Of a stretch of 64,000 nucleotides of DNA, positions 47,556 through 59,963 are shown in pieces. Position 1 is the stretch's first letter. Each line of letters opens with the position of its first letter. Source of the stretch: Anaeromyxobacter sp. Its GTDB lineage: Bacteria; Myxococcota; Myxococcia; Myxococcales; Anaeromyxobacteraceae. The DNA is taken from positions 908,778 through 972,777 of the forward strand of contig JASGJN010000022.1 of assembly GCA_049840735.1 (NCBI GenBank), given 5' to 3'. The notes beneath the pieces are model-generated. The model saw nothing but the letters and a program-made list of their open reading frames with translations. It was not told where the DNA came from and made no database searches. The position numbers and the translations under genes were made by a program.

Positions 47556-49831
47556 CTAGCCGGTCGTCGAGGTCGTCGAGGTCGTCGAGGTCGCCGAGGT
47601 CGTCGAGGTCGTCGAAGTGTTCGATCGATGCTCGTCACCCATCGAGATCCGCAAGACGAAGTACATGAGTGTCAGCGTCCCGATCGCAAACACCGTATCG
47701 CCGAACGCGCGCATCCAACGCAAGACGTGCATGGTGTTCTGCTGCAAGAATTCGGAACTCCGCGCGTACCAATAGCCGTGTTCGACGGAGGCCCAGGTCT
47801 GCATCAAGCCTACGGGCAGCAAGCTGAAGAGTACCATGGCCATCAGACCGCCATTGATGGCCCAAAATGCGAATCGGAGTGGCCCTTCCTTCCAAAGAGC
47901 ACTGGTTCGGTACGTTCGGAAGCAGAACAACATCAAGCCAATCCCGAGCATCCCGTAGACCCCGAAGAGCGCCGCGTGTCCGTGGACTGGAGTCGTGTTG
48001 AGGCCCTGCATGTAGTAGAGAGCGATAGGTGGATTGATCATGAATCCGAAAAGCCCAGCTCCGACGAGATTCCAAAACGCGACAGCGACGAAGAAATGAA
48101 ATGGGCCAACGGTATTTGCGCACCCAGGGACGCGAGCTGGCGAGCCTAAGATTGTGCCAAGCTTCGAATCCCACGAAGAGCAAGGGGACGACCTCGAGGG
48201 CACTGAAGACGGAGCCGAGCGCGAGGACCACCATTGGTGTGCCCGCGAAATAGAGGTGGTGTAGCGTGCCAATCACTCCACCGGCGAGGAAGATCGTCGC
48301 TGCGAGCACCGTCGAGCTACCTGCCGTAGCCAAGCGGATGAGGCCGAGCCGCGCGAACAGGAACGCGATGATCACCGTCGCGAACACCTCGAAGAATCCC
48401 TCCACCCAGAGATGAACGACCCACCAACGCCAGTATTCGGCGACCGCCAAATTCGTGTGTCGACCGTAGCCGAGAGCGGCTCCGTAGAACCCGGCAATCG
48501 CGACGGACGAGATGACGAACAGTATCAACACGGGGCGTTGCTCGTCGCGTTTGCGAAGTGCAGGAACGAGTGCGCGGAGCATGAGCCAAAGCCAAAGAAA
48601 CAGGCCGATCAAAAGGGCGATTTGCCAGAGTCGGCCGAAATCGATGTACTCGTAACCGCTGTGTCCGAGATAAAACCACACGTCACCGCTGAGGCCGCGC
48701 ATTACGCTGAACCACTGCCCCGCCATGGAACCCAGAATCACCGTGACGACGGCACCGAACAGCACGTTGACGCCCAAGCGTTGATAACGTGGCTCTGCAC
48801 CTACCGAAGGCCCGATGTAGAGGCCCGCAGCGAGCCAAGTGGTTGCAATCCAGAATATCCCAAGCTGAAGGTGCCAGGTGCGCGCGACCGTGTAAGGCAG
48901 AAATCGAGCGAGGGGGATCCCGTAAAAGCCGCCGCCTTCCACCCCGTAATGAGCCGTGACGACTCCCAGTATCACCTGTAGCCCCATCAGCGCCGTTGCC
49001 GCCCAGAAGTACTTCATGACGGCGCGCTGTGACGGAGTGGGCGCCGCACCGAGGAGGGGATCGTCGTTGGGCGTGCTCGGTTGAGCTTCCTCCTTCTGCA
49101 TCGCATAAAACAGTGCCATCGCGCCGATCCCCGCCAATAGCACGATGATGCTCACGCCCGTCCAAACCACGGTTTCACCCGTAGGACGATTGCCCACGAG
49201 CGACTCGTGGGGCCAGTTATTGGTGTACGTGACGTCGTCTCCAGGGCGTTGCGTCGATGCTGCCCAAGAGGTCCAGAAGACGAACGCCGCGAGTTGATAC
49301 ATTCGCGCAGGATCGGTGAGTGTTCCGCTCGGGATCGCATACTCCGGGCGTCCGTCGCGAAATACGCTCGTATAGTGAGCCAGATTCGAGGCGAATGCTC
49401 GACCGCGCACGTCGTCGATGACGAGTACGCCGCTCTTCGCATCGTAGCGATTGGGCCGCACCGAATCTTGGAGCCTTTCGATCAGCTTGCTCTGCTCTTC
49501 GGACGGAAGCTGCGCAAAGCTTCGCCCGTGTTGCATCATCGCCCACTCCTCGAGGGTGTAAGCCGCTTCGCGATGGAGCCAATCCGCAGTCCAATCCGGG
49601 GCAACGTAGCTCCCGTGGCCCCAGATGGAAACCGACCTCCATGCCCCCCATCGCCTGCCAAACGTTTTGTCCGGCGGAAATGTCACCCGTATCGATGACG
49701 GTGGTTCCGCTCGTCGTAACGACTCGACTGGGGATTGGGGGCGCTTGTTGGTAAATCCGCACCCCTGTCCAGCCGAGAACCGCGAAAGATAGGACCAGGA
49801 CCGTGACGAAATAGAGCCAAAGTCGTCTCAT
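47556..49831 (-). CDS. norZ: Quinol-dependent nitric oxide reductase (qNOR); frameshifts near 49630 and 48100
   Basis: GHGSYVAPDWTADWLH, YTNNWP, RTWHLQL, WWVVHLWVEGFFE, GTLHH, ALEVVP, TPVHGHAALFGVYG. Confidence 0.95.
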
Positions 49832-52048: not shown

Positions 52049-53023
52049 ATGACGAATGCAATCGAGACGCAAGGTTTGACGAAACGATTTGCGGAGACTC
52101 ATGCGCTCGCTGGACTGGATTTATCGATTCGTGGCGGGTGTGTCTATGGTCTGCTCGGTCCGAACGGCGCCGGCAAAACCACGGCTATCCGTGTGCTCAC
52201 GACGTTACTCAAGCCGAGTGGTGGCCGTGCGATGGTATTGGGCTTGGACGTCGTACGGGAGGCGTCGCTGGTTCGTCAAAAAGTGAGCCTCACGGGACAG
52301 TATGCCTCGGTGGACGAGGATCTCACGGGAATGGAGAACCTCATTTTGGTCAGTCGCCTTCTCGGCATGTCATGGACCGATGCGCGACGACGCGCGTCGG
52401 AGTTGCTGGCGATTTTCGGTCTGACGGACGTCTCTAGCCGCCAAGTCAGGACCTTTTCGGGCGGGATGCGGCGTCGAATCGACATTGCGGCAAGTCTGGT
52501 AACGCGCCCGGAGATTCTATTCTTGGACGAACCGACGACGGGCCTCGATCCAAGGAGTCGCAACCAGGTTTGGGAATTGGTCCGTCAAATCGCGGCTGGC
52601 GGCACGACCGTGTTGCTCACGACGCAGTATCTGGAAGAGGCGGATCGTCTGGCAGATCGCATGGCGGTCGTCGATCGCGGCAAGGTCATTGCGGAGGGGA
52701 CCAGTCGCGAACTCAAGGCTTCGATCGGCGGAAATGCGTTACAATTCCAACTCGCCGATGAGCGCCAGCGCGAAAACGCTTGCTCGCTCGTGACCGAGCT
52801 ATTGGGTGACGTCGCGCTGACGAACTCGGGTGGCGCATCGATTTCGATCAAGGTTGCCGATCCGTCGAGGGCCGCGCAAGTACTCGAAGCCTTGTCAAAT
52901 GCAGCGATTCGAGTCACCGACTTTTCGCTGGGTGCACCGAGTCTCGACGACGTGTTCTTTTCGTTGACTGGACGCTCGCAAGTGCAAGAGTCGAGCATTG
53001 ACGGGAATGAGGTGTCCCCATGA
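52049..53023 (+). CDS. drrA: DrrA-family ABC transporter ATPase
   Basis: GPNGAGKT, FSGGMRRR, FLDEPTTGLDP, TTQYLEEAD, PSLDDVF. Confidence 0.9.
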   Translation: MTNAIETQGLTKRFAETHALAGLDLSIRGGCVYGLLGPNGAGKTTAIRVLTTLLKPSGGRAMVLGLDVVREASLVRQKVSLTGQYASVDEDLTGMENLILVSRLLGMSWTDARRRASELLAIFGLTDVSSRQVRTFSGGMRRRIDIAASLVTRPEILFLDEPTTGLDPRSRNQVWELVRQIAAGGTTVLLTTQYLEEADRLADRMAVVDRGKVIAEGTSRELKASIGGNALQFQLADERQRENACSLVTELLGDVALTNSGGASISIKVADPSRAAQVLEALSNAAIRVTDFSLGAPSLDDVFFSLTGRSQVQESSIDGNEVSP

Positions 53024-53839
53024 ACGTGGAGAGTTATTCCGAGCTCCGTGAGTCCTTCGAGCTGAGCGCGAGACCGTCCTCGACTTCGGCTTGGTCTGCG
53101 GTTGCCACGCTGGCGTGGCGGGCCCTGCTCAAGATCAAGCACGTGCCGTTTCAGCTCTTCGACGTCACGGTGACGCCGATCATGTTCACGTTGTTGTTCA
53201 CGTTCATGTTCGGCGGCGCGTTGGCAGGCTCTCCGGCGGTCTACATCCAGTACTTATTGCCGGGGATATTGGTCCAGACCGTCTTGTTCGTCACGGTATA
53301 CACCGGTGTAGGAATCAATAGCGATATTCAGAAGGGGCTCTACGACAGGTTTCGCTCCCTTCCGATATGGCAGCCTGCGCCCGTCATCGGTGCGTTGGCT
53401 GGAGATCTGTTCCGCTACTCGATGGCATCCTGCATCATCTTGGTCCTGGGATACGTCCTTGGCTTTCGTCCGGCGGCCGGGGTCATCGGCGTGCTCCTCG
53501 CATTGGGGCTCGTTCTCGTATTCGCTTTCGCGGTTTCTTGGATCCGGATCATCTTCGGAATGAAGGTGAAGACGCCGGAATCCGTCATGACGACGAGTTT
53601 CGTCTTTCTGATGCCACTGACCTTCGCCAGTGACATATTCGTTCGCCTTTCGACGATGCCGCCGTGGCTCCAGGCGATCGTTCGGCACAACCCGGTTACG
53701 GATTTCGACCGACGCTTCGCGAGGTCTCATGCACGGAACGGACGTCACGGCCGACGTGCTTTGGGTCTTCGGTGCATCCGCGCTGCTCGTCGTCATTGCG
53801 GCGCCCCTTGCCATGCACCTGTATCAACGGGAACGGTAG
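53020..53839 (+). CDS. drrB: DrrB-family ABC-2 permease; frameshift near 53701
   Basis: Six TM helices, DRFRSLP, MPPWLQ...NPVT; ATGA overlap with the ATPase gene. Confidence 0.85.
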
Positions 53840-53850
53840 CGCTCCTACCC

Positions 53851-54058
53851 TGCAACGTCCGGTGCCGAAGTCAGAGTGCCCCTGCGCGCAGTCTTTTTTG
53901 TCGGTACGTCGTGCAACGTCCGGTGCCGAAGTCAGAGTGCCCCTGCGCGCAGTCTTTTTTGTCGGTACGTCGTGCAAACGTCCGGTGCCGAAGTCAGAGT
54001 GCCCCTGCGCGCAGTCTTTTTTGTCGGTACGTCGTGCAAACGTCCGGTGCCGAAGTCA
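53851..54058. repeat. 61/62-bp tandem repeat x3.4 between convergent genes
   Basis: TGCAACGTCCGGTGCCGAAGTCAGAGTGCCCCTGCGCGCAGTCTTTTTTGTCGGTACGTCG at 53851, 53912 and 53973, plus a partial copy at 54035. Confidence 0.95.
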
Positions 54059-54138
54059 CGAATGACAGGCAAATATGCTGGCGTCCAACCTAAGCGGATG
54101 GGTTGCTGCTCTAAGTGTCCTACGGGCTTCACGTCGGT

Positions 54139-55869: not shown

Positions 55870-58800
55870 ATGACAAGAACGTCGAAGCGAGGGGCTGCGT
55901 TGCAGAGAGGCAGGTCGGCGGTGGTAAAACGCAAGAAGTCGAGGCCTCGCGGTGCGGACGCTCAAAAACCGCGGAGCCACGACACGTCAGCGGCGGACGA
56001 TGCCGCTATCGAGACTCCCGTAACGACGACACGGGCGCCGAAGGCGAAGCTGGCGAAAGCACCTGGATCACCGCGATCGCGCTCGGAAGGCGGAGCGCCG
56101 CACGCGCCGGCGTCGAAAGGAACTTCTCGGCGCGATATTTCACCTCCGGCTTCGGACCCGAGAAATCCAGTGGCGAGTGGGCATGCTGCTCGGCGTTCGA
56201 CGCCAGCGGAGAGTGCGACCCGTCGCCCCGGATACGAGCTGCGTCAGGAAGAGATCGAGCAGGCGCTCCGCGCGGGCAGCCAAACCGGGATTCTGGAAGA
56301 CTACTTTGGCGAGTCCGCTTATCGCGAACTGCGTGAATTGGCGCTCGAGTCCTCCACGACCCGACGCCGCGGTGGGCCGCGCGTATTGATTCTGCCTGGG
56401 ATCATGGGATCGACCCTCGGCATTCCGAATCGGGTGGGGCCTTTCGACGACGTGCTTTGGCTCGATCCTCTCGACGTTGGGTTGGGCCATCTCACTTGGC
56501 TTGCGCCCGATTCTGGTCGGGCACTCGCGCCCTTGGGCGTCATTCTCTTCACCTATTTGCGCCTGCGTTTGGCTCTGCAGCGGGCAGGCTACGATGCCGA
56601 CTTCTATCCCTTCGACTGGCGCCGCAGCATCGACGAACTCGGCGCCGAGCTCGCGGACGTCATCGGTCGCGAGCAACACGCCCGGATTCATTTGGTCGCG
56701 CACAGCATGGGCGGCCTCGTCGCTCGTGCCGCGCTGAGCCACGCAGAGGGCAAGAAAGTCGAACGACTGATCATGCTCGGCACCCCGAACTTCGGCTCCT
56801 TCGTACCGGTACAAGCCATTCGTGGAACGGCGAAAGTAGCCAGAACCATCGCGGCGCTCGAATCCGTTCCATTCGGCAGCGGAGCTTGCCGAGGGGGTGT
56901 TTTCCAAGCTGCCGGGGCTGTATCAGATGCTGCCCGCTCCCGAACGCTTTTCGACGGTCGATCTCTATTCGACCGCAGGATGGCCAAAACAAGGGCCGCA
57001 GCCGAGGCCGGAGCTTCTTCGGCAAGTCGCGCGGGTGCGCCGAACACTGGCGGAGGCAGACGAGCGATTCACGCTCGTCGCCGGTGTGAACCAAGAAACC
57101 GTGACGGGGCTCTCCTTGAGTGGTGGAGCTGAGTTCGTCTACGAGTGCTCTCGGCAAGGGGACGGAACCGTGCCTCTCGATTTCGCCCTTCTGCCTGGGG
57201 CTCGCACCTATACGGTCGAGGAAGAGCACGGCTCTTTGCCGAACAATGGACGCGTATGTGCCGCTGTCGTCGATCTATTGAGTACGGGTGAGACTTCGCG
57301 TCTCGACGTGCTTCGTCGGAGGATCGCAGTTCCCGTCGTATCCGGACGTGTCTCCGACGGTGAGCTCGTTCAGAAGCGTGCCTTCGATGGGCGAAGGGGG
57401 GCGGAGTTGAGTGCGAGCGAGGTACGGCGCGTAGCTTCGCAATTCGTCTCTCCCGACGCTCGGGAACAGGTGAGTGCGACACCCGTCGTGTCCACCCGAC
57501 TGGGTGAGGCGGACGCCGAAAGCGCGAGCAACGAGGGGTCACTCAGCGGCGTCGTCATTGGACGCAGGAGACAACGTCAGCTACAGATCCGGCTCGCTTA
57601 CGGGAATATCCTCGGTGTGCGGGCTCGAGCATACGTAACGGGGATCTTCAACGGTGTCGATCCCGGTGGGCCAGCTGCGGCCATCGACGCGATTCTCGAA
57701 GGCACCATCGAAGAGTTTACGCGGCGTCGGATGTTCACGGCGAACGCCGGCGAGATATTTGCGATTCCCACGGCAGATCATCTGATCCACGCCGACACGG
57801 TCGTGCTTGCCGGGCTCGGCTCCTTCGATCAATTCGGTCCCGAGACTCAGCAGCTCGTGGCCGAGAACGTCGGGCGCTCACTGCAATTGACGCGCATCGA
57901 TGACTTTGCGACGGTACTCTTCGGTGTTGGTTCGGGCCATACCGTTGCTGCGTCTCTGCAGAGCTACCTCATCGGCCTCCTGCGCGGCCTCTCGGACACG
58001 GAAGGGGCTAGCTTGCGTCGAGTCACCTTGTGCGAAACGGATCGCGAACGGTTCAAGCAGATGCGGGATGAACTCCTTCGGCTGACGACCACGAAGCTCT
58101 TCGACGACGTCCAACTCACCTTGGACGAGATCGAGGTGCCTGCGCCACCCGAGCCCGTCACGGCAACTCGTGCCATGCTGCGTGTCGAGCAGCCCGTCGT
58201 TTACTTGCACGTCCGACGTGAGCCAGGATCTGCAAAAACGCAAGCTTTTCGCTCGACGGTCCTCACGGCGGGTTCGAAGGCAGCGGTCATTACGGGCGTA
58301 CGAGAGGTGTCGGATCGAGAACTCTCGTCGGCCTTGAGCAAGATCGACGCCGATCAACTCACCTTTCGTAATCTCGAGCAGTTCGGTTCGGCGCTCGGCG
58401 AACTCGTGCTCGCCGAGGAGGTTCGCACCGTTCTCGATAAATTGAGGCAATGCCACCTGGTGGTTGTGCACGATGCTCCAGCTTCGAGAATTCCATGGGA
58501 GACCTTGTGCATCAAGAGCTCCGAGCGAGCCGAGCCGTTCTTTCCGGCCAAGGGAGCCGGCTTGAGTCGTCGGTACATCGCCGACAATCTGTCCGTGTCG
58601 AAGTGGCTCGAAGAACGTCGGCAGGATCGCGTTCTCAAGGTATTGTTGGTGGCCAATCCTACGGAAGACCTCGATGGCGCCAACGTCGAAGCCGCGCGCA
58701 TCAAACGTCTCTTCGAACGTCAACGCGACGTGAGTATCACCGAGCTCGCAGGTCCCGAGGCCACGAAGCCCGCATTGCTGTCGGCGTTTCGTTCTGGTCA

Positions 58801-59284
58801 GTACGACGTGCTGCACTATGCGGGGCACGCGTATTTCGATCCGAAGACGCCATCGCTCAGTGGCATCTATTGTGCCGGGGAACAGGTGCTCACGGGCGCA
58901 GAACTCGCCAACTTGGCCCGACTCCCGTCGCTGGTTTTCTTCAATGCGTGCGAGGCGGGGAGGATCCGGGGTCGCTCGCCGAAAGCCCCCGACGCCCAAG
59001 GGAGCGTTCGGCTAGAAAAGCGAATCGAGCAGAACGTCGGCCTCGCCGAGGCGTTTCTTCGTGGTGGAGTGCCCAATTACGTCGGAACCTATTGGCCCGT
59101 CTCCGACCGGGCAGCAGAGGTTTTCGCCGCGACGTTCTACGCTGCCATTATCGACGGACAGCCGATCGGTACTGCACTCGGACGCTCGCGTTTGGCCGTA
59201 TTCGAGCTGCGTGAGGTCGATTGGGCCGACTATGTCTTATATGGAAGTTTCGACTTCGTGCTCAAACGTCTAGCGCACTCTTGA
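55870..59284 (+). CDS. Fusion of a PGAP1/LCAT-like alpha/beta hydrolase, a peptidase-M17 N-terminal (macro-like) domain and a CHAT caspase-like protease; frameshift near 56860
   Basis: LPGIMGS, FDWR, AHSMGG, LGTPNFGS, GDGTVP, EHGSLP; AIDAILEG...VVLAGLG; IPWE, LHYAGH, FFNACE, GTYWPVSD, WADYVLYG. Confidence 0.85.
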
Positions 59285-59312: not shown

Positions 59313-59963
59313 ATGGAAAATCGTGAATTGAACTGGAAAAGGTGCGTTCTCCCGGTCCGCTTCAGGGCTGCCGCACCCGAAACCTGGGCACGCAGGAAGG
59401 AGCCAGGTCCGCGTGAGATCCGCCTGCTCGTGCTTCATTCGGCAGAGTGTGCGGAGGTGCCGGGTGCAGCGGAAGCGTTGCAAAGCTGGGCAAGTGGCTC
59501 GAACCATCCGAAGGGTGCGTCGTGGCACTTCGCCGTGGACTGCGATTCGATCACTCAAAGCGTCGAGATCGAAGACGTCGCGTGGCACGCGGGGGTCGTG
59601 AACGGGTACTCGATTGGTATCGAGCAGGCAGGGCGTGCCTCGCAAACGCTGGCGCAATGGTCTGACGAATACTCGAGCCGCATGCTCGAGCGAACCGCGA
59701 GACTCCTCGCCGTGCTCGCCGGTATGTACGACCTACCGCTCGAGCACGTCGAGCACGAGCTTTCGACAGCTCGGGGGGTGACGACGCATGCTGACGTGAC
59801 TCGATGTTTCGCGGTCCGCGGTGGACACACAGATCCAGGGGCCAACTATCCTTTGGCTCGGGTGCTCGACCTCGCGCGACGGTACCAACTCGAGGCAGTG
59901 TGCAGTGACGAAGATTTGCGAGTACTTGCAGGTCGTAGTGGTTCGGGGGTGGCGGAGCGGTGA
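59313..59963 (+). CDS. N-acetylmuramoyl-L-alanine amidase (Amidase_2)
   Basis: VLHSAE, SWHFAVD, AWHAG, SIGIE, TH.DV, HTDPG. Confidence 0.9.
   Translation: MENRELNWKRCVLPVRFRAAAPETWARRKEPGPREIRLLVLHSAECAEVPGAAEALQSWASGSNHPKGASWHFAVDCDSITQSVEIEDVAWHAGVVNGYSIGIEQAGRASQTLAQWSDEYSSRMLERTARLLAVLAGMYDLPLEHVEHELSTARGVTTHADVTRCFAVRGGHTDPGANYPLARVLDLARRYQLEAVCSDEDLRVLAGRSGSGVAER

Follow-up and report, generated by a model that had tools for sequence, protein, structure and literature searches.

Organization of the fusion gene

The window analysed here is a 64,000-nucleotide (nt) stretch of DNA from an Anaeromyxobacter sp. assembly (GCA_049840735.1, contig JASGJN010000022.1, positions 908,778 to 972,777 of the forward strand), and it forms the final 64 kb of that contig, C22. 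At positions 55870..59284 it carries a gene that joins a lipase, a domain of M17_N/macrodomain type and a CHAT protease. In the family to which this fusion belongs, the residues bordering the lipase change with the type of protease attached to it, a pattern that predicts excision of the lipase by its own protease. The features of the gene are as follows.

55870..59284, + strand: lipase - M17_N/macro-like - CHAT fusion gene, about 1138 amino acids (aa), with one frameshift in the assembly
55870..56229, + strand: N-terminal tail of about 120 aa, basic and of low complexity; homologues have shorter tails that vary
56230..56370, + strand: conserved N-terminal helical segment, a predicted pro-piece
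56362..56376, + strand: predicted cleavage site 1, RRR↓GG, after Arg167 and before the first lipase strand
56371..57290, + strand: LPLA2/LCAT-like lipase core; Ser 56704, Asp 57161, His 57227
56860..56863, + strand: one-base frameshift dividing the lipase, probably an assembly error
57300..57350, + strand: predicted cleavage site 2, in an Arg-rich loop behind the lipase fold
57347..57550, + strand: conserved post-lipase strand and helices, followed by a disordered linker
57551..58141, + strand: domain of PepA-N-terminal-like / macrodomain fold; TVLFGVGSG at 57911 is its glycine-rich loop of the phosphate type
58199..59270, + strand: CHAT protease, consisting of a pseudo-protease and an active domain; His 58826, Cys 58949; invariant Arg in the post-Cys loop and a WPVxD motif

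GGAG stands 9-12 nt upstream of the ATG, and a scan for promoters and terminators returned nothing that clearly exceeded shuffled sequence. The lipase motifs AHSMGG, GDGTVP and EHGSLP start at 56698 (Ser codon 56704), 57158 and 57224, and the CHAT motifs LHYAGHA and FFNACE at 58811 and 58937 (Cys codon 58949). We take the second His of LHYAGHA, at 58826, to be the catalytic one, following the usual caspase-fold pattern. A sequence-only reading of the window had marked these motifs and called both catalytic sites intact; all of them lie where it placed them, and the five catalytic residues are present. It had also described a basic N-terminus of about 120 aa, which we confirmed (net charge +0.15 per residue). 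Homologue tails have a median of 31 aa as called, and 114 of the 124 that reach at least 15 aa carry more than +0.1 charge per residue. Pfam assigned LCAT (6e-8) and PGAP1 (9e-8) to the 5′ piece of the gene, and Peptidase_M17_N (1.5e-7) and CHAT (5e-35) to the 3′ piece, all above curated cut-offs. No signal peptide or membrane helix was apparent in a hydropathy check.

The two pieces result from a one-base shift at about 56860-56863, which places the lipase Ser in one frame and the Asp and His in the other; as assembled, the gene reads as two open reading frames (ORFs). The window copy might accordingly be a real pseudogene or split gene from which no active lipase is made, whatever the family does elsewhere, and the shift is indeed present in the sequence and parts Ser from Asp and His. 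Its surroundings argue otherwise. The whole window lies within a 147-kb block at the contig end (G000:C22:826000-972777) whose GC content, about 60%, is below the roughly 74% of the genome. For some host-type genes, such as glutamine synthetase-like and chemotaxis genes, the block holds a second copy, at 33-73% identity. We counted 5 frame switches among 21 testable genes of the block versus 2 among 46 host genes, and both pieces of the window gene are 60-73% identical to intact homologues, without stop codons or other decay. In a stricter first look, the fusion was not found in the 40 relatives searched. We conclude that the block is probably foreign, error-rich DNA of another organism, possibly a chimeric join, and for this reason the 56860 break is very probably an assembly error, with a genuinely broken gene highly improbable. 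A short, compensated double frameshift is also possible at 57300-57350, where it would affect site 2: the alternative frame scores -3.8 versus -13.1 over 8 positions, and the site contains Arg in either frame.

Related irregularities were seen elsewhere. A NorB/qNor nitric oxide reductase gene at 47556-49831 (- strand) is in three frameshifted pieces, and an ABC permease at 53020-54093 (+ strand) appears frame-shifted near its end; both point to assembly errors. Behind the permease, at about 53850-54060, is an imperfect repeat with repeated peptides in several frames. Contig C25 likewise ends in a stretch of about 60% GC, some 30 kb long.

Folds of the lipase and protease domains

With the window gene broken, we folded an intact homologue, P0004, which is 63% identical over the 3′ piece (mean predicted local distance difference test score, pLDDT, 88.6; predicted template modelling score, pTM, 0.63). 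Residues 28-330 of P0004 (28-334 in the next-ranked alignment) match lysosomal phospholipase A2 (LPLA2) with a Z-score of 27.4 and a root-mean-square deviation of 3.0 over 295 aligned residues, followed by LCAT (Z 25.1) and the type VI secretion system (T6SS) effector Tle4 (Z 24.0). The region thus has both the alpha/beta-hydrolase fold and the Ser-Asp-His triad of an LPLA2/LCAT-type lipase. The C-terminal part of P0004 matches separase (Z 21.3) and Csx29 (Z 20.9), a caspase fold with a pseudo-protease subdomain. Together with the middle domain described below, the domain-by-domain fold check that had been called for resolved the chain into an LPLA2/LCAT-like lipase, a PepA-N/macrodomain hybrid and a separase/Csx29-type CHAT protease.

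The lipase Ser-Asp-His and the CHAT dyad H846 and C887 are invariant in 114/114 aligned homologues. Two acidic residues of the CHAT domain, E800 and D939 (the latter in WPVxD), are also invariant; we assume that they form an Arg-binding pocket as in separase-type enzymes, and as far as sequence can say they suggest that the CHAT protease is specific for Arg. An invariant Arg, R893, opens a disordered loop after the catalytic Cys and is a possible self-processing site. A complex prediction of the lipase module with macro-CHAT (plus ADP-ribose) gave a score of 0.01, which we count neither way.

A widespread family with exchangeable proteases

Searching with the 3′ piece gave 465 homologues among 7997 scored candidates. 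Among the 120 homologues listed, 115 are single proteins of >900 aa, and nearly all of these match the lipase family and CHAT, so the fusion is not a product of chance. The three-domain architecture proposed from the sequence is therefore real, with abundant single-protein homologues, even though the window copy itself stands as two ORFs. A profile of the middle domain recovered 1302 representatives at E ≤1e-30; lipase and CHAT were both present in 103 of the 149 new top matches, and most of the others were truncated proteins. Among these top matches the middle domain is rarely placed anywhere but between the lipase and CHAT. The genomes with family loci belong to Nitrospirota, Acidobacteriota, Alpha-, Beta- and Gammaproteobacteria, Planctomycetota, Actinomycetota and further groups, and a metagenome scan added only 2 further full-length loci. 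This is a large, widespread and uncharacterised bacterial family. NCBIfam had no model for the fusion at 1e-12, and we found no paper on it; preprint supplements lay outside the literature search, so an earlier listing there is possible, and the architecture itself is already listed in databases.

The lipase module is less constant in its partners, occurring with CHAT, with V8-like trypsins (54 proteins), with papain-like proteases (2 proteins) or alone. Its fusion to V8-like, Glu-specific proteases is new here. The lipase-trypsin proteins (L031, L034, L044; P0123-P0177) are mostly from Alphaproteobacteria and often have a C-terminal NucA or Amidase_2 domain, and a second trypsin gene lies behind those of L034 and L044. 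In P0180 and P0181, nested within the trypsin clade, the partner is a papain-like C1 protease.

Several other arrangements were recorded. A long subfamily of 1800-2000 aa (L040, L041, L043, L048-L051, L053-L057, L059-L063, L065, L069) has the order DUF7379 - lipase - M17_N-like - CHAT - TPR-S and sometimes adjoins C14, TIR or TIR-SIR2 genes; a literature search found no paper on DUF7379. In L064:7858-11329 and L073:7964-11389, a small CHAT gene, a gene for a protein of ~350 aa without a Pfam or PADLOC match and an LCAT-like lipase gene form a three-gene unit. A family of TIR - CHAT - LysM proteins comprises P0403 and P0413-P0425, and P0310, which has no CHAT match, appears to be a frameshifted ordinary member.

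Predicted cleavage sites flank the lipase

If the fused protease frees the lipase, the residues at the lipase borders should follow the protease, and this is the pattern we observed. At site 1, Arg-Gly (RG) directly precedes the first lipase strand in 148/157 CHAT fusions, compared with 3/49 V8-trypsin fusions and 2/12 lipase-only proteins, on a background of 0.07 per 10-aa window. Glu occupies the site in 42/49 trypsin fusions versus 27/157 CHAT fusions. These counts leave out about 7 CHAT and 5 trypsin proteins in which the anchor motif is missing or the N-terminus is cut. At site 2, Arg is present in 167/168 CHAT fusions, and Glu in 49/52 trypsin fusions versus 30/168 CHAT fusions. The fused trypsins carry a Thr/His S1 pair in 46 of 54 cases, which we take as the V8 signature of Glu specificity, and JGI names some of them V8-like Glu-specific endopeptidase. 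In further sets, RG is present in 17/26 distant loci and, on a background of 0.20 per 32-aa window, in 28/38 short and 17/38 long representatives. A lipase-only protein with a C14 caspase gene behind it (L047) keeps RG, which its sister without a caspase gene (L058) lacks.

An unbiased scan of 390 module positions placed the clearest Arg-to-Glu switches at P0004 residues 344-345 and 25-27, with a third at residue 376, inside a helix. The top two are the loops that bound the LPLA2-like fold, just before and just after it. Because these loops flank the lipase and follow the type of fused protease, the covariation of Arg with CHAT and Glu with V8 predicts, by comparison of sequences, two cuts that would free the lipase. 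We regard cleavage after Arg by CHAT on both sides of the lipase as probable, and a latent state of the uncut lipase as slightly favoured. For the fuller proposal, that the fusion is a self-activating zymogen from which CHAT frees a phospholipase, most likely as a conflict or cell-death effector, we judge the chances to be about even.

Several observations weigh against this proposal. The trypsin fusions are essentially one clade, so the covariation comes from few events, and a test on 5 independent pairs fell short of significance: on average, 2.3 pairs changed in the same direction, 0.0 in the opposite one and 2.6 did not differ (median p 0.5). Site 2 has RG in only 56/168 CHAT fusions, lipase-only proteins keep the site 2 Arg in 9/12 cases, and in one CHAT clade that adjoins the trypsin group RG is replaced by RS or RA. 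Lipase-only forms, which arose about 3-4 times, keep both flanking segments; protease remnants were found in 0/20 of their loci, and no full macro-CHAT occurred in 5 genomes with such forms. The lipase may therefore be functional without being cut.

These points give room to a different view, in which lipase and CHAT act in parallel: CHAT would have its substrates elsewhere in the cell, and the Arg or Glu at the borders would be a lineage-specific feature of the linkers or the target of a separate metacaspase. Besides the covariation, which loses significance once ancestry is allowed for, it draws on the existence of each half without the other, as lipase without protease and as macro-CHAT without lipase (the stand-alone M17_N-CHAT protein of 630 aa at L009:9962-11854, from a Verrucomicrobiota genome, near a subtilase), and on the C14 gene adjacent in 9/76 loci. 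Yet both top switches coincide exactly with the edges of the lipase fold, the residues fit the expected specificity of each fused protease, and none of the 13 close loci has a C14-cluster member. We consider parallel action improbable.

The middle domain is an aminopeptidase/macrodomain hybrid

The middle domain of the window protein was folded directly (pLDDT 94.8). Its best match is the N-terminal domain of PepA (Z 19.3), and the next are macrodomains, with Z 17-18 to Af1521, PARP9 and macroH2A; EcThsA also matches (Z 12.1). The sequence-only description of an M17_N-like domain with a macrodomain-like fold was thus borne out, by Pfam as well as by structure. The M17_N match is above the Pfam cut-off, but CHAT stands behind it in place of the M17 catalytic domain. 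In sequence, the first half is aminopeptidase-like (E 2e-12), and the second half matches macrodomains weakly, including a glycine-rich phosphate loop that is absent from the aminopeptidase alignment. This loop, vLxGxGxG, aligns with the diphosphate loop of the TTHA0132 and rubella macrodomains at weak E-values of 0.05-0.14. Its glycines are kept in 147, 114 and 122 of 149 representatives, and the aromatic residue of macrodomains is missing.

The position of the adenine-binding Asp is a further point against the zymogen proposal. It is Ser in 104/114 close homologues and Asn in the window protein, which has G-N-I in place of the G-D-I motif; among the 149 wider representatives, Asp, Ser and Asn account for 56, 52 and 36. 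We conclude that the domain is a hybrid which could bind a phosphorylated ligand and, the adenine-binding Asp having been lost, is not a standard ADP-ribose reader. The idea, put forward from the sequence, of ligand-triggered autocleavage held in part: autocleavage that frees the lipase agrees with the comparative sites, and ligand sensing lost ground with the Asp. Gating of CHAT by the middle domain has somewhat less than an even chance, and a ligand of ADP-ribose type seems unlikely. PepA is also reported to be a DNA-associated accessory protein in Xer recombination (the accessible part of PMC5357621), which makes nucleic acid another candidate ligand.

One protein, P0274, has the order TIR - M17_N - CHAT, with TIR in the place of the lipase. 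As support for an ADP-ribose signal it was given little weight: it is 1 protein among 58 matches, and its CHAT domain is without the catalytic Cys.

Genomic neighbourhoods

In the window, the fusion gene lies between a divergent pectate lyase gene and an amidase gene.

59313..59963, + strand: Amidase_2 gene, 28 bp downstream of the fusion; not a conserved neighbour

The amidase was rejected as a member of the system, with no homologue in 76 loci; by phmmer it is unrelated to the Amidase_2 domains of some trypsin variants. Nor does the pair correspond to Borvo: only the CHAT part matches PADLOC BovA (profile 484-663 of 711, E 5.5e-8), and the amidase has no PADLOC match.

The association of close homologues with defence islands that the sequence-only reading had expected was not seen, which also tells against a conflict role. 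The 13 close loci lie among variable housekeeping genes, and PADLOC, run on 80 of their 100 neighbours, identified no defence system, only generic ATPase, methylase, GlgB and subtilase matches. NCBIfam results for 38 of these neighbours were mostly metabolic and transport genes. Around the 28 distant or long fusions, a C14 metacaspase is nearby in 8 and a TIR or DUF4062 protein in 4; TPR-S, patatin, SLATT and FRG occur among other neighbours of distant loci. Pfam was run on 85 of the 199 neighbours listed at these 28 and four distant lipase-only loci, plus some others. The wider family therefore has a conflict context that the close family lacks.

Alternatively, the fusion may be a self-processing enzyme whose released lipase or acyltransferase has its place in lipid signalling, in the remodelling of membranes or in stress physiology and does not kill the cell. 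In favour of this, close members stand alone at chromosomal sites that are stable and surrounded by metabolic genes, the site beside LysR and acyl-CoA dehydrogenase persists across Steroidobacteraceae even where the protease has been lost, and the best structural matches, LPLA2 and LCAT, are non-toxic acyltransferases. Against such a role, T6SS phospholipase Tle4 also comes close in fold (Z 24.0), distant neighbours are of conflict type (C14, TIR, SLATT, patatin), and so are other fusion partners of the same lipase (NucA-trypsin conflict proteins, TPR-S and, in one case, TIR), to which papain-like proteases may be added in favour of the effector reading. A purely physiological function is in our view rather unlikely, and a lethal membrane or defence role has somewhat less than an even chance.

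The Steroidobacteraceae-type genomes with the lipase-only form at this fixed site are L008, L013, L015-L021, L023-L026, L028-L030 and L033; some relatives have the full fusion there.

A model for activation

On the zymogen reading, the protein would be cytoplasmic, and a trigger would turn on its CHAT domain. CHAT would then cut after Arg at both lipase borders, in cis or between copies, and remove the flanking helical pieces. The freed lipase would be an active phospholipase, most likely with the role of an effector in conflict or cell death. Where distant members have a C14 metacaspase next to them, that enzyme may set off the cascade.

A more ambitious version, in which sensor, protease and effector make up a complete death circuit in one protein, we think unlikely. 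Here the ligand of the PepA-N/macro hybrid would be a phosphorylated signal: either nucleic acid of an invader or a derivative of ADP-ribose that TIR or Sir2 enzymes supply in trans. Once it is bound, the hybrid would turn on CHAT, which would cut out the LPLA2-like phospholipase to destroy the membrane. Were this true, a cross-phylum immune or cell-death family of >1300 clusters at 50% identity would have been missed outside defence islands, and the aminopeptidase N-terminal fold would gain a role as a receptor.

Comparison with known systems

The nearest functional precedent is the LcHydrolase system of Lysobacter capsici: in the available part of the preprint, LcCaspase is described as cleaving LcHydrolase twice, each time at R↓G, into fragments that kill E. 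coli (bioRxiv 10.1101/2025.11.14.688446, Evans et al.). Compared by architecture, both systems link a hydrolase to a caspase-fold protease; two Arg cuts and the logic of a latent effector, described for LcHydrolase, are predicted for the fusion. As described there, the LcHydrolase system has two genes, a hydrolase of ~33 kDa and internal cuts that remove a 4.7-kDa piece. The fusion, in contrast, is one chain of ~1000 aa with an LPLA2/LCAT-type lipase, predicted cuts that flank the fold, a protease of the CHAT (separase) type and, in addition, a PepA-N/macro domain; a separate small hydrolase gene with internal-fragment cuts is not what we find.

Pairings of hydrolase and caspase were predicted earlier in VMAP ternary systems and NucA-trypsin systems (PMC7159879, Kaur et al. 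2020, in the portion available). As in those systems, hydrolase and caspase are predicted to cooperate, and relatives of the lipase are fused to trypsin-NucA. Unlike the VMAP systems, neither the window gene nor the close loci have MoxR, vWA or EAD partners nearby, save for a VWA-domain neighbour in L002. The three-domain fusion is absent from the accessible text of that paper, two of its supplements gave no relevant match, and the corresponding portions of PMC8195603 and PMC13069673 do not describe it. Protease swapping around one effector, as seen here for the lipase, has a counterpart in the MBL nucleases in the accessible text of PMC12799240.

The protease itself resembles Csx29 (Craspase), DdvA and separase in combining a pseudo-protease with an active protease fold (Z 20-21) and a His-Cys dyad. 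It differs in having no TPR or CRISPR effector, in the macro-fold domain upstream of CHAT and in a predicted substrate within the same chain. With Type IV Thoeris, where a TIR signal is described as activating a caspase-like protease (bioRxiv 10.1101/2024.10.24.620036, available part), and with macrodomain-sensing ThsA, the fusion shares a possible nucleotide gate on a caspase-fold protease, EcThsA being among the matches of the middle domain; unlike in Type IV Thoeris, the surroundings of the window gene and of its close homologues yielded no TIR gene (80/100 close neighbours by PADLOC). The lipase shares fold and triad with LPLA2, LCAT and Tle4 (Z 27.4, 25.1 and 24.0) but is embedded in a protease fusion, with no signal peptide or membrane helix apparent.

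It was not until 2025 that hydrolases gated by a protease were shown to act as death effectors (bioRxiv 10.1101/2025.11.14.688446). The family described here joins protease and hydrolase in one chain, offers cut-site predictions at the level of residues and contains a middle domain that bridges aminopeptidase N-terminal domains and macrodomains; its LPLA2/LCAT-type fold suggests a lipid substrate. Judged from its sequences, it may be placed beside LcHydrolase as a putative variant of the protease-gated hydrolase effectors, with specific predicted cut sites.

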